Below the pieces are notes generated by a model. That model saw nothing but the letters and a program-made list of their open reading frames with translations, did no database searches and was not told the DNA's origin. A stretch of 62,838 bases of DNA, counting the filler, from Collodictyon triciliatum (Eukaryota): NCBI GenBank assembly GCA_043381765.1. It is 8 parts of 8 records of this genome, joined end to end, with 100 filler letters (N's around TTAATTAATTAA, not from the genome) between each part and the next. Parts side by side here need not be neighbours in the genome. Positions count along the whole stretch, not along the records: positions 8,359 to 16,612 come from JBHJMP010003506.1; 7 more parts are not named here. One strand, given 5' to 3'. Shown piece after piece: positions 11,856-16,612 of this stretch. The translations under genes and the position numbers were made by a program. Within the stretch, counting starts at the first letter, position 1. Every line of letters starts with the position of its first letter.

Positions 11856-14800
11856 TCATTCCGGATGGATGCCGTCACTGCTGGCCATACAATCACGCTT
11901 GTGATGGGGCTCTGATTCGCAAACTTTAAAAAGAACAAGAGTAAATAGGGAGGGAAATATGCAATTATCACATGTAAGTATGGTGAGGATGACTCTTGTA
12001 TAATAATCACATCACTTTTACAATAAGGAAACAGTACGAGGCACATGAAATAGTATTCACCATCACTGGACGGGTCCCTTTGGTAGGCAGTATCTGCTTC
12101 AAGGGCTCTCTTCCTTTCGTTCATTTCGCTCTTTGATGTGACTGTAAACTGAGATGAGAGTTCATCTTCGTAATATTGCTCAGTATCATGTGTTGGTATT
12201 GGTGCTGTCACAGTGGTCGCTGGAGATTCGATCCTTGTCGGCGCGTATGTAGACTGATGACAGCTATAGCGATTCGAGACTGCAAGCCTCATGGCTTTTA
12301 GCTCTTGCGCAAAAGAAAGAAAAAGAAGAGGAGATAATTAATTATATATATATATTATCATTTCAAGTAAAATAAATTGACAATATGAAAACATGATAGA
12401 TAAAAGCAGTCTTTCTTGGTATCATTTTGGAGGAAGAGGTTGGCACGGTCTTTTTTTGTAAGAGCAAAAAAAAAAAAAAAAATTGTTAGTTCGGCTGTAA
12501 GTAAATATTTAGTCGGCTTACTTTTCCTTTCTAACACTTTCTTGTGTGAGTACGTGTAGAATGAATGGGTATACTGCGAACTAATAACTGTGATTGGTTC
12601 GCTCTGTTGGCATAGCGTAAGTTTGATACAAAATTCTCTTTGCCTGTGCCTTGCTGATGCTTCTGAAATGGTCAAGCCAGAGAAGACAGCCGACCCGTTC
12701 TTCTCTACAGGGACTGTTGTTACGCCGCCAAGAATTTCACAGGAAAGAGGTAGCTGTATTGGTGCACAGTTCTTGTTTTGCTCTGAGGCATACATCAGCT
12801 CAGCTTTCATTATGTATTTTCCTTCAGGAAGCCCATCTGCTACCGGCTGGACTGAAGCTATGAAGCTGAAGTTTCTATTTAAAATGTGAGAAGTACGGTC
12901 ATTTCTTTGAATGTAATTTTCAATACATGTAATAGTAAGTCCTGTGAAGAAAAAAAATATATTTATCATGTATCTGGATGGAGGAATAGCTTTAGCTGCG
13001 ATTCATTAATCAATGAACCACCTTATTTCCTTCGGTGTCCGTGTTCTTATTTCGCTGGGTGGTTGCATGTCTATTGATATCTCTAATTGCTCACCAACCC
13101 TTTTTTTGGGATTATCTGTGTCTCTTGTGCTGGGAGAAGGTAGGTCATATTGTCGCGGACTGATTTTTTGTGATGCACTTAACAAGGAGGCCACGTCCAT
13201 CTCCTCCCTGCTGAGAACCCGTTTATCCCCGGTTTGGGACTCTATACTATTCCTACCGAGGCTTAACATTCTTGATGACGGCGATATAGATTGTGGTGGT
13301 GAATTTTGATGCTCCTCCATTTGATTAGGCGATGGCAGACGAAAACCATCTGTTGGGGGTTGTAAAAAAATATTTTGTAGTGGCTGACTGGCGTTGCCCT
13401 GGTGAGAGAAGAATTCAGGTATGTTTGATGTTTTTTTGAATGGAATGGATTGTTGTCCGGGAGCTTGCTCATTTATAGCTGTTTTCATATCTTGCCCATT
13501 GGTAGCTGTCTGGTTTATTAACTGTGTAAAGGATATATGAGAACTCTGGGAGAGGTGGTAGTTGTGACCCATAATTTGAGGCTCATATCCTTGTTGGGAT
13601 GGTTGAGCAGTATTATCAGTAGCTTTTGTCATCATTCCACAACTCATAAATCTTGATGTTTGTGTTGGGATATATCGTGCTGTGACTGGGTGAAGAAGTT
13701 TGACTGCAAAGAAGGTTTCTAAATCGACCAACAATTCCTGTCGGCACACAGGGCAGTAACACAGGTTTGGACTTTTACTTCTCAAGCAGTCCCAGCACAG
13801 GGTGTGAAGACAATTATGGATACCTATAGGGTTATTCGCTCTGGAGGTGCAGAGTTGGCAGTACATGTGTGGATCTGGTGTGAATGCCTCTCCAATTACT
13901 CTAGACACATCACCAACAAGGTTTTCAGCCTAAAATGTTTCAGGGTCATTGAGGACTCAAATAATCCTTATTTTACTATTACTAGGTTTAAAGTGTAAAA
14001 TTACATGAATATATTAATCGATGGGATAAAAAGTTCATTAATCTTAAGAGGAGAGAATTTCCCTTGTCATTTGTTGTAGAGGAGAAATTTCTACTATAAT
14101 ATTATATCATACCTCAACAACTAACTTAGGCAAGAGCCGGGACTGGCAAAATGTGCTTTGCTTTAAAACCTCTTGAATAGTCAAGGGTGGAATCCCTTTC
14201 GTGCGTTTGTTTCTCTTGTGTATAATTTTAGAGACTGCTATGTAATTGAACAAAACATACTTACGAAGGTGGTCTATGGTTTCGCTTAAATTGACCAACA
14301 TCGTTGTCATTTCCATCGTGCGAGAGGGATTGTGCACTGCCACCAGAGGAGGTTGGACAATCATATTTAATTTATCAGTCTGCTGTACGATTCCAAATGG
14401 ACGTGCGGACGATTTGTTTACGATGTCTTCGAAGTAGTTGCGTATAATGTTATATTGTTCCACACATTCCTTCTCTACCACGGCATAAAACTGATCTATC
14501 CGAACAAGCTCTGTATTGAGTTGATGCAAGAAAATATTGTGAATAGAATTTGCAGTTCCAATGTGGATCTGCTCAAAAGAGTTGTGAGGACCAGCATTTG
14601 GCGCAAATAGTCTTTTTGGGGATTGAGTGTGGGTATTGGAGGGTCCTAACCCACTTGCGGATATGCTTGTGCCTTTTTAATATATATTCAATAGTGAGTT
14701 TTTTATGATGAGAAATGTACATTTAGTTGGTTTTTTTTATTAAAAAAAAAACCTGATATCAAAGTTGGAGACATCATCGTTTGGGTTGGTGCAATGAGGC

Positions 14801-14954
14801 TAAGAGGAACAGGCTCTGATACAAATTTATGTGTTCCTGTGGGGGAAATCACACTTGGATTGCAGTCGATGGCCTTCTTGAGGGTCTTATAGTCGAGATA
14901 GAAAGCATCCCAGCCCGAGCGAGCAGCCTGCTTTAGACGCTTGCCAAATTTCAT
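11856..14954 (-). CDS. SPX domain - C3HC4 RING finger - disordered linker - CudA/CBP60-like DNA-binding domain protein
   Basis: SPX: MKFGKRLK...YLDYKTLKKAI, FLHQLNTELVRIDQFY, LRKYVLFNYIAVSKIIHKRNK. RING: CQLC...CLHTLCWDC...CPVC. Exons 14954-14753, 14672-14113, 13929-13095, 12941-12522, ~12302-12061, ~11923-11856; phase-compatible GT-AG junctions, 3' exons less certain. Confidence 0.85.
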
Positions 14955-16612
14955 CTTCACGGCAAACCCTATTTGCATATGGTGAAATCACTTCTAGCTT
15001 GTTGTCTCTAAACTTCTTTTTTAGGCGACTATATCTTCACAAAAAATGGGTGAGCATCATGTTAATTGTATACAAGACTGCTACGAGATTGGTTTATGTT
15101 ATTTTCTTATATTTTAATGAGAGAGGGGGAACATGAGGATATAATTCAACTTTTTTTAAGGTGGTTGATCTCGAACGTCCTTTACTTTTTAACAAAAAAA
15201 AAAAATGGGAGTGAAAGGATTGAATGAGAGTGGTTTTATACTGAAGCACAAGACCCCAGAATAATCCAAAGTTTGATCCCAATTTAAAAAAAAAAACACT
15301 CTTCATTTGCAGAATATGATAAGACCAGATATTTAGAGGCTTGCCTCGACTCGCATAACAAGGTCGATTCCCCACCACGAACTCAGGAACCTACCATAGA
15401 AAAGAATCACACGAATCCATTCTTGCACTTTTGTTCGAGAACAAATCAACAGCAACAAAGAAAAAAAATGGCGAGAAAGAAAGGCACCATGGTCGGGTGG
15501 TTGATCGGATTCAACACTGGCCCTTTTCTTTGCTGGACGTAAATGACCGGCTGGACTATATGACTACGATAAATCCTCCTTGTGGTTATCTTTCATCGAA
15601 CGGCGAAGGGAATTAATTTGAAATATCTTCTTTTCAATTGATATAGTTGATATCATTGTCATTTATTTTTTTCTTGCCCCTCATATTTTGATTTCGATAA
15701 TAAGAAGAAAAAAAAAACACCTTGTAAAAAGGAGTGAAATAAAGAACGGGAGTGGCCAACCAGCCTTCCCAAGACTCAATACCACTGGGAAACAAACATG
15801 GACCAAATTTTCCTTGACCGAGCAAAGAGCACCGGGAATATCTGCTTCAATCGGTTACGTCCTTCGGTGCATTACATTCCACGAATCACTATTAATATTA
15901 TCCTGCCCTCGTTCCCAAATCTAATCCCATAACGCACTCGATAATTCTGTGAATATTTAATTTTTGTGTATTATACAATTACTATAATTACATATAATTT
16001 CACTATAAAAAATATTTATTAAGTGCTATTAATTAGTTAATTTAATATTATGTTATATATTCCGCATATAAATTTTTCAACGATGAGGTTTCATTTGGCT
16101 TCTACTTGTGGATTTTTTGTAGTCCAACAACGCGGAGGATGGGTGTGGTTGGGATGCGCTTGTGGAGTGAAATATCGATGCATTTTTTTGGTGGTGTGAA
16201 GCTCCCATCCTTTTGGAACATGATTAGTTGCGGGAAAAAGAAGCCGATTCCTTCTCTCGACTTGGTGATACAGAAGCCTTTTGCTCTATCCCAGCAAAGT
16301 TGGCCCGTAACAGCCTGTAGTTGATTAGAGTCACACATTTCACAGATTGCTCACAGATTCTTCCACAGCGCTAGTATCGGCTTGGGAGTGTTTGGCGAGG
16401 GTGGTGGTATTTTATTCTCAGAGTTGTGCCTTGAAGTTCGGGCATAAACGGTGGGTAAGGCGCTGAATATGCAAAATGTGGTGAAAGCTCCTTTCCTCTT
16501 CTTTCTTATGTATTTCTTTCTTTGGGCGATTGTGCGTGGTTTCTTTGGGATTAATTGTCTGGTAAGTCATGTACGTTGTCCAGTATCATGTTTCAAGACA
16601 GAAGAAAAAAAC

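Follow-up and report, generated by a model that had tools for sequence, protein, structure and literature searches.

SPX domains are common eukaryotic readers of phosphate status. In plants the functions involved in this response are split between SPX1-PHR1 and NLA, and in yeasts between Pho81-Pho80/85-Pho4 and Pqr1. To our knowledge, the targets of SPX domains in every studied case are transporters, polyphosphate synthases or transcription factors, the last of these being acted on in trans. Here we describe a gene on the minus strand of a stretch of Collodictyon triciliatum DNA (62,838 nucleotides (nt), filler included; the whole stretch is referred to as the window) that places an SPX domain, a RING and a transcription-factor-type DNA-binding domain in one chain. 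An earlier note on this DNA had proposed that sensor, RING and DNA-binding domain are joined in this way, and at the level of gene structure the proposal is borne out by a 302-codon exon shared between the RING and the DNA-binding domain and by contigs that are spliced in frame. We regard the architecture as well supported.

Known SPX domains bind inositol polyphosphates and then partners such as PHR (PMC8717665). Pqr1 and NLA are SPX-RING ubiquitin ligases that down-regulate phosphate transporters and restrict phosphate uptake, the targets being Pho84/Pho842 for Pqr1 and a phosphate transporter for NLA (PMC10704438). The same N-terminal order of SPX and then C3HC4 RING is found in NLA/BAH1 of Arabidopsis, in Pqr1/Spx1 of fission yeast and in the window protein. 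This likeness is one of domain order, and the window protein runs ~460 residues further through a linker, the DNA-binding domain and a tail, whereas no such extension of NLA or Pqr1 is described in the excerpts of PMC10704438. The joining of an SPX domain to a nuclear module has precedent, since domain scans of algae and basal plants have turned up EIN3-SPX and SPX-RING-BET fusions, their roles being not completely known (PMC8717665). In those fusions both the partner domain and the lineage differ from those of the window protein.

Gene structure and transcript evidence

The gene is real and well formed. It was modelled as six exons with a 2334-nt coding sequence of 777 amino acids (aa), all junctions being in frame and all five introns being of the GT..AG type on the minus strand. 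The ATG at 14954-14952 and the TGA stop at 11858-11856 agree with the limits 11856..14954, which the earlier note had given correctly. The domain order along the protein is SPX (~residues 1-250), RING (278-316), linker, PKKR, a beta-sandwich DNA-binding domain (~535-675) and a tail of ~100 aa. These pieces are carried by the stop-to-stop open reading frames (ORFs) 14703-14987, 14107-14676, 13006-13929, 12358-13002 and 11828-12337, all on the minus strand. We consider it very likely that one fused protein is made in the window's organism.

Transcript evidence consisted of contigs of four public runs (X1, X2, X3 and X4) aligned to the window. Contigs of X1 and X2 are 95-99% identical to the window and were taken to represent close relatives, and those of X3, an RNA-Seq metatranscriptome, are at least 99% identical. 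X2 contigs leave 12384-13637 uncovered and no X4 contig aligned, both being uninformative in these respects. Contigs of this kind are unable to show transcript starts, and their depth is no measure of isoforms. The features of the gene are as follows.

14753..14954, minus strand: exon 1, SPX N-terminal helix, YLDYKTLKK with Y22 and K26; Pfam SPX profile positions 1-29
14673..14752, minus strand: intron 1, 80 nt, GT..AG, phase 1; predicted only
14113..14672, minus strand: exon 2, remainder of SPX including helix SKIIHKRNKRT (residues 215-225)
13930..14112, minus strand: intron 2, 183 nt, GT..AG, phase 0; missing from one contig each of X1 and X2
13022..13929, minus strand: exon 3, a single 302-codon open frame with the RING, the S/Q/P/T-rich linker, PKKR and the start of the DNA-binding domain
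13431..13441, minus strand: A-run within the linker; in the X1 contig 2 bases are missing (13439-13440) and 13438 is substituted
12875..13021, minus strand: intron 3, 147 nt, GT..AG, phase 2; holds the stop 13008-13006
12522..12874, minus strand: exon 4, bulk of the DNA-binding domain (residues 557-675)
12304..12521, minus strand: intron 4, 218 nt, GT..AG, phase 1; X1 joint 12303/12522, shorter side 28 letters
12061..12303, minus strand: exon 5, S/T/E-rich tail; in frame; no family match
11924..12060, minus strand: intron 5, 137 nt, GT..AG, phase 1; missing from one contig each of X1 and X2, which have at least 100 letters on each side
11856..11923, minus strand: coding part of exon 6, ending in TGA 11858-11856

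Four of the five introns (14112-13930, 13021-12875, 12521-12304 and 12060-11924) are skipped exactly in X1/X2 contigs, which is the pattern that spliced transcripts of close relatives would give. The fusion itself is independent of any single splice, because the start of the DNA-binding domain shares the 302-codon exon 3 with the RING and the linker. This uninterrupted exon holds the RING, the linker and the first strand and basic loop of the DNA-binding domain (its first 22 residues). The exon 3 tail LEISIDMQPPSEIRTRTPKEI (13089-13022; the last 21 residues) has its own match immediately ahead of the domain match in all 20 metagenome loci. In the alignment of the protist family described below, the tail, the arginine at the junction and exon 4 jointly rebuild the motif QPPxEVRTRTPxExRxF, and it is this rebuilding that places the domain start in the same exon as the RING and linker.

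Splicing of intron 3 is seen in a 488-nt X1 contig that joins 13022 to 12874, with at least 231 letters on each side and zero depth inside 13021-12875. The junction restores QPPSEIRTRTPKEIRNF, a motif common to all relatives, and its split codon (AG/A) encodes the conserved R of ExRxF. The earlier note had placed this splice at 13095/12941. A donor and an acceptor do exist there and are in frame, but the junction used in the X1/X2 contigs is 13022/12874 instead, and in X1 the donor GT is altered at 13094. We rejected the 13095/12941 splice, which would delete 13094-13022, encoding the family motif, and would insert 22 residues (12941-12875) to which nothing in the relatives corresponds. With the exon read from 12941 as query (P0001), no phmmer match aligns upstream of query residue 19, and the true exon begins at residue 23. 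The same note had named an mRNA that keeps 13094-12942 and ends at the stop at 13006 as evidence against its reading; 13094-13022 is indeed retained, but the stop at 13008-13006 is spliced out. The peptide that it quoted, ...EILGGVTTVPVEKNGSAVFSGLTISEASARHRQREFCIKLTL...SFYTYSHKKVLERK, is present in the window.

Intron 1 is the sole GT..AG pair found by hand that bypasses the stop at 14705-14703 and so connects the two SPX frames; upstream of it, an X2 contig spans 14860-14902 within exon 1. Across the region of intron 1 the relatives' contigs have 316 unaligned letters compared with 348 in the window, 48 above the spliced expectation, and this surplus could be an in-frame length difference in a variable SPX loop. 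At the other end of the gene, the 3' untranslated region extends past 11700, with 124 letters beyond that position in X1 record 1. Another X1 contig (12274-12449) keeps part of intron 4, where read-through would swap the tail for another short C-terminus; this retention may reflect unspliced precursor RNA or a minor isoform.

Both conserved N-terminal modules that the earlier note had named were recovered. The SPX domain (~residues 1-250) matches Pfam PF03105 on two ORFs with E 1.5e-7 (32.2 bits) and E 1.1e-8 (36 bits), both pieces lying above the cut-off of 27.8 bits. Helix 1 has Y22 and K26, and the helix KIIHKRNK aligns weakly (E 0.22-0.26) with KILKKYDK of rice SPX1/SPX2 (chains 7e40 and 7d3y). 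In SPX domains the Tyr/Lys of helix 1 and the Lys cluster of helix 4 make up the basic inositol-phosphate binding surface. Within about 30 residues after the SPX domain begins a complete C3HC4 RING (residues 278-316; 13860-13744) with the pattern C-x2-C-x12-C-x-H-x2-C-x2-C-x10-C-x2-C, in which all eight Cys/His are present, though the Pfam models for RING domains score it below threshold.

The linker comprises residues 326-530 (~205 aa), with S27, Q22, P19 and T16 as its composition, and PKKR lies at residues 528-531 (13110-13099), in agreement with the ~200-aa Q/S/P-rich linker ending in PKKR that had been proposed. At the A-run 13431-13441 X1 reads net two bases shorter, as a longer A-run, and the shifted frame ends after 7 more codons; an assembly error, genuine divergence of the relative or (transcriptional) slippage on the A-run may account for this deletion. 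The tail of ~100 aa (676-777), which follows SHKKVLERK, is S/T/E-rich, and neither the tail ORF nor the domain ORF (the last two ORFs) had a Pfam match at E ≤ 1.

Family and fold of the C-terminal domain

A phmmer search of 1.84 billion representatives returned 50 proteins at E ≤ 1e-3 and 12 at E ≤ 1e-10, the best at 3.9e-15. Five of these matches were excluded from alignments, namely P0030, P0036, P0048 and P0051 (unrelated bacterial/composite Pfam) and P0047 (a fragmentary two-piece match). The family profile search gave 82 proteins among the matches listed. Members occur in the dictyostelids Polysphondylium, Acytostelium, Tieghemostelium, D. purpureum and Heterostelium, in Planoprotostelium, Stereomyxa, Cochliopodium, Clydonella and Pellita, in the CRuMs Diphylleia and Rigifila, and in Colponema. 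Judged by sequence, the C-terminal domain is a member of this protist family of Amoebozoa, CRuMs and Colponema. Window residues 535-675 align along the whole domain with the family motifs QPPxEVRTRTPxExRxF ... SEASTKHxEREF ... FYAYSHKKVLxRR.

Family proteins are typically 250-720 aa long and usually begin with a disordered N-terminus, after which come the domain and an IPT/TIG-like domain. The partner-domain family (P0002-P0120, L001-L020) thus shows a Rel-homology-like two-domain build, an RHD-N/velvet-like N-domain followed by IPT/TIG. In Rel proteins, dimerisation on DNA is brought about by IPT/TIG. In the window protein no IPT/TIG was found after SHKKVLERK, and tblastn of 11 relatives against the 62.8-kb window matched only 13110-12478. 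A form of the family that is likewise without TIG is found in Diphylleia P0008. In Heterostelium album, P0103 (PPL_05494) joins the alpha-galactosidase domains PF16499, PF17801 and PF02065 to the family domain; annotation has probably run two adjacent genes together here. RHR/RHD is given as "not in Dictyostelia" in a survey of the transcription factors of dictyostelids (PMC6873476), and the family may therefore have been overlooked there.

The fold was assigned from models. The AlphaFold model of the family member P0003 has a predicted local distance difference test (pLDDT) score of 91.6. In Foldseek, 33 of the 33 rows listed to rank 38 contain NFAT, NF-kB/Rel or TonEBP, with E 4.7e-12 to 5.5e-9; the best is 1p7h (NFAT1, E 4.7e-12), the title of 3qrf names only FOXP3, and EBF1 comes next after the Rel/NFAT rows. 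VIA-align over both domains of P0003 gave NF-kB p52 at Z 13.7 (216 residues), RelA at Z 13.5 and TonEBP at Z 12.8. For the N-domain of P0003 the values were Z 12.2 for the velvet protein VosA, Z 11.4 for p65 (root-mean-square deviation 2.6), Z 10.8 for VeA and Z 9.9 for p50, followed by CEP-1 (Z 9.7), Dictyostelium STAT (Z 9.6) and Runt and p53 (about Z 8.9). Exon 4 of the window, modelled alone with AlphaFold2 and with the first strand left out, reached pLDDT 83.8 and weaker matches of the same kind to velvet (Z 8.9), p53/CEP-1 (Z 7.9) and p52 (Z 7.9, a middling score), its top 12 rows being all transcription-factor DNA-binding domains. Foldseek of this partial domain gave no match at E ≤ 0.001, the best being velvet 4n6q at E 0.029. 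As modelled, the fold of the window domain is of the p53/Rel/velvet type.

The two-domain build of the Rel homology region (p52, RelA, TonEBP, NFAT) is shared with P0003, but sequence identity is only 15-21%; the fungal velvet proteins VosA and VeA share the fold of the family N-domain. The family profile gave three weak NFAT matches among PDB sequences, all in the TIG part (E 0.03-0.27), and no sequence-level PDB match for the N-domain. In Pfam searches at E ≤ 1, RHD_dimer was found in 11 of 74 family members (sub-threshold, best E 5.2e-5) and TIG in 10 of 74, PF00554 (RHD_DNA_bind) was found in 0 of 74, and the window exon 4 matched no family. With P0001 as query there was no Pfam match at E ≤ 1, no PDB sequence match at E ≤ 10 and no hit in a word-based search for longer proteins. 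The spacing QP-4 residues-RxRxxxE is reminiscent of the Rel/NFAT recognition loop.

The earlier note had called the domain CudA/CBP60-like and of Ig fold. This was right in kind, as seen from the p53/Rel/velvet fold, from PF28397 in relatives and from weak CBP60 matches, but the closest solved structures are Rel/NFAT and velvet. A lack of any match to a DNA-binding Ig-like fold, which the note held would speak against it, was not observed, the models matching p52, velvet and CEP-1. PF28397, named DG1062_N in the Atlas, is a precomputed Pfam match in 5 of the 82 relatives. In the Atlas, the structural clusters closest to the Polysphondylium domain (template modelling (TM) score 0.66) carry it on every member, and one of them is the cluster of the Arabidopsis "SH2 domain protein B", so that a cluster of plant SH2 (SHA/SHB) proteins shares PF28397 with some family members. 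The next Atlas neighbours are velvet (TM 0.67) and two CBP60 clusters (rows 7 and 8; TM 0.66 by query, under the family-naming bar).

The likeness to plant CBP60/SARD1 consists of these neighbours and of PF07887 (Calmodulin_bind, CBP60) matches in a single register. The matches occur in 5 of 74 members with E 0.057-0.14 and 13-14 bits compared with a cut-off of 25.5 bits, all at profile positions 80-143; none of the 74 members exceeded the cut-off, and the window exon had no match. The PDB structure match lists contained no CBP60 entry. In 2008 Yamada et al. reportedly described the CudA core as resembling a domain of the plant SH2 proteins named above. No family match bears the name cudA, the motifs sought for a link to CudA were not found in the supplements of PMC8808424, and literature searches for CudA with Rel homology or CBP60 with Dictyostelium returned nothing relevant by title. 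The Heterostelium member PPL_05494 is absent from the five Cud genes listed for the species in PMC6873476. In sum, the domain is of a Rel/velvet-type fold, in a family of which some members are filed as DG1062_N in Pfam and which has faint CBP60 sequence echoes, and is only a candidate for CudA membership.

Neither SPX nor RING was found in the relatives of the family (35 scanned with Pfam and 82 listed with precomputed Pfam). When the SPX and RING exons were compared by tblastn with the 20 metagenome loci, of which only 6 have at least 2.6 kb upstream, the best E was 0.66, which we count as no match. A profile search for longer proteins, covering 1267-3615 aa only and hence uninformative for a 777-aa architecture, found none, and no literature was found that pairs an SPX domain with Rel homology. 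Both kinds of module are known, and their combination, absent from the relatives found and the literature searched, looks new.

Neighbouring sequence in the window

The window is AT-rich (about 29-39% G+C), intron-bearing and gene-sparse. The convergent downstream neighbour at 10545-11210 on the plus strand is a leucine-rich-repeat gene (LRR_8, E 1.5e-8), and a low-complexity stretch, F/S/L-rich or K/E-rich, lies at about 10846-11018 in this region. Exon-sized ORFs on the minus strand match Ebp2, involved in rRNA processing (46925-47323, E 3.5e-17), and Radical_SAM (61704-62198, E 4.7e-18); 15 of the 18 long window ORFs scanned had no Pfam match. For the segment at about 60170-60940, which is open in all six frames, a reading as a repeat was rejected, and the segment is a run of N (an assembly gap or masked stretch).

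Readings of the fused protein

The architecture suggests a mechanism that would combine the activities of its parts. The N-terminal 320 aa would be a ubiquitin ligase of the NLA/Pqr1-type SPX-RING class, whose SPX domain would read inositol pyrophosphate and hence phosphate status, and the appended domain would carry the ligase to the nucleus and place it at specific sites on the DNA. In the logic that we think most likely, ligand-bound SPX would, under ample phosphate, turn on the RING, which would ubiquitinate either its own chain or chromatin-bound factors nearby; alternatively, the ligand-bound SPX would mask the DNA-binding domain. Under scarce phosphate the protein would be stable and DNA-bound and would alter the transcription of phosphate-response genes. 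We put this integrated sensor-ligase-DNA mechanism forward tentatively, as a proposal that falls just short of probable. That the protein is a one-component phosphate regulator, in which the SPX ligand directly gates the stability (via the RING) or the DNA binding of the Rel/CudA-type domain in the same chain, is possible but rather doubtful.

Differences between the window and X1 give an indication of constraint. The counts below cover the listed differences; 14 further ones are unlisted.

Residues 535-675, DNA-binding domain: 7 synonymous, 3 non-synonymous (L642I, E537Q, Q635E)
Residues 326-533, linker: 2 synonymous, 9 non-synonymous
Residues 278-316, RING (differences at 279-306): 2 synonymous, 5 non-synonymous, none at Cys/His
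Residues 676-777, tail: 0 synonymous, 4 non-synonymous

Q635E shifts toward the family consensus.

Several points weigh against a fused, DNA-binding regulator. The mechanism is putative at every step. X1, X2 and X4 are RNA by guess only, and intron 1 is a prediction that no contig confirms. All eight of the RING-type Pfam families on the third ORF score below their cut-offs, the best being zf-RING_UBOX with 22.5 compared with 25.2 bits, and in the weak alignment to rice SPX1/2 three of the four Lys of the SPX cluster are kept, the other position being His. The domain stands alone without IPT/TIG, so that DNA binding is uncertain. The intact A-run of the linker is backed only by the window and by two 151-nt X3 contigs at depth 2; the X1 deletion, if real, would mean that in that relative the RING and the DNA-binding domain are not in one frame. 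X1 depth is 8.9 in the 5' part and 20.7 in the 3' part, with the step at a contig break near 13279. The mostly non-synonymous differences in the linker fit a disordered linker and also fit weak constraint.

The missing IPT/TIG partner, which most relatives possess, would fit an ordinary NLA/Pqr1-like ligase in which the beta-sandwich serves not in DNA binding but in recognition of substrates or partners, for example by capturing full-length members of its own transcription-factor family so that they are ubiquitinated. Protein contacts are often made through Ig-like sandwiches, and other proteins are the targets of the known SPX-RING ligases, as with the substrates of Pqr1 and NLA named above (PMC10704438). 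However, the basic loop RTRTPKEIR and SHKKVLERK, both candidate DNA contacts, are kept as in the family, the PKKR patch lies directly upstream of the domain, and the ratio of 7 synonymous to 3 non-synonymous listed differences indicates purifying selection on the domain. It is also the C-terminal domain, and not the N-domain, that forms the dimer in Rel proteins. We consider such a recognition module unlikely. The X1 deletion, which stops the frame within the linker, and the step in X1 depth at 13279 would instead suit two products, an SPX-RING ligase that ends in the linker and a distinct DNA-binding protein that arises from an internal start or from a shorter transcript, with the fused frame not the main product. 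In-frame Met codons are present in the linker downstream of 13279, and 9 of the 11 listed linker differences are non-synonymous. On the other hand, the 302-codon frame of the window is stop-free from the RING into the DNA-binding domain, and by a rough estimate ~205 linker codons would be open by chance at 37% G+C about once in a million cases. The X3 contigs, at least 99% identical to the window, carry the window version at the A-run, and contig depth, as noted above, does not measure isoforms. Two separate products are improbable in our view.

Some of the same observations could be read as signs of decay, that is, of a recent gene fusion that has lost IPT/TIG and is drifting to a pseudogene without integrated function. 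TIG is absent, the listed differences are non-synonymous in 4 of 4 cases in the tail and 9 of 11 in the linker, one relative (X1) shows a frameshift, and the architecture occurs in no other lineage among the relatives and loci examined. We find this very unlikely, as the 777-codon frame of the window is intact across five introns, the transcripts are spliced, comparison of the window with X1 shows conservation of the DNA-binding domain and of the RING Cys/His, and the TIG-less form exists elsewhere, in Diphylleia P0008.

If the integrated sensor-ligase-DNA mechanism is true, sensing, ubiquitination and promoter recognition would be merged in one polypeptide. A natural protein that unites SPX, RING and a DNA-binding domain would offer a compact means of studying how the binding of inositol pyrophosphate is converted into nuclear output, and each step could be assayed on one recombinant protein. 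The partner family is little studied, and it bears on the age of the Rel/velvet/CudA/CBP60 DNA-binding folds.

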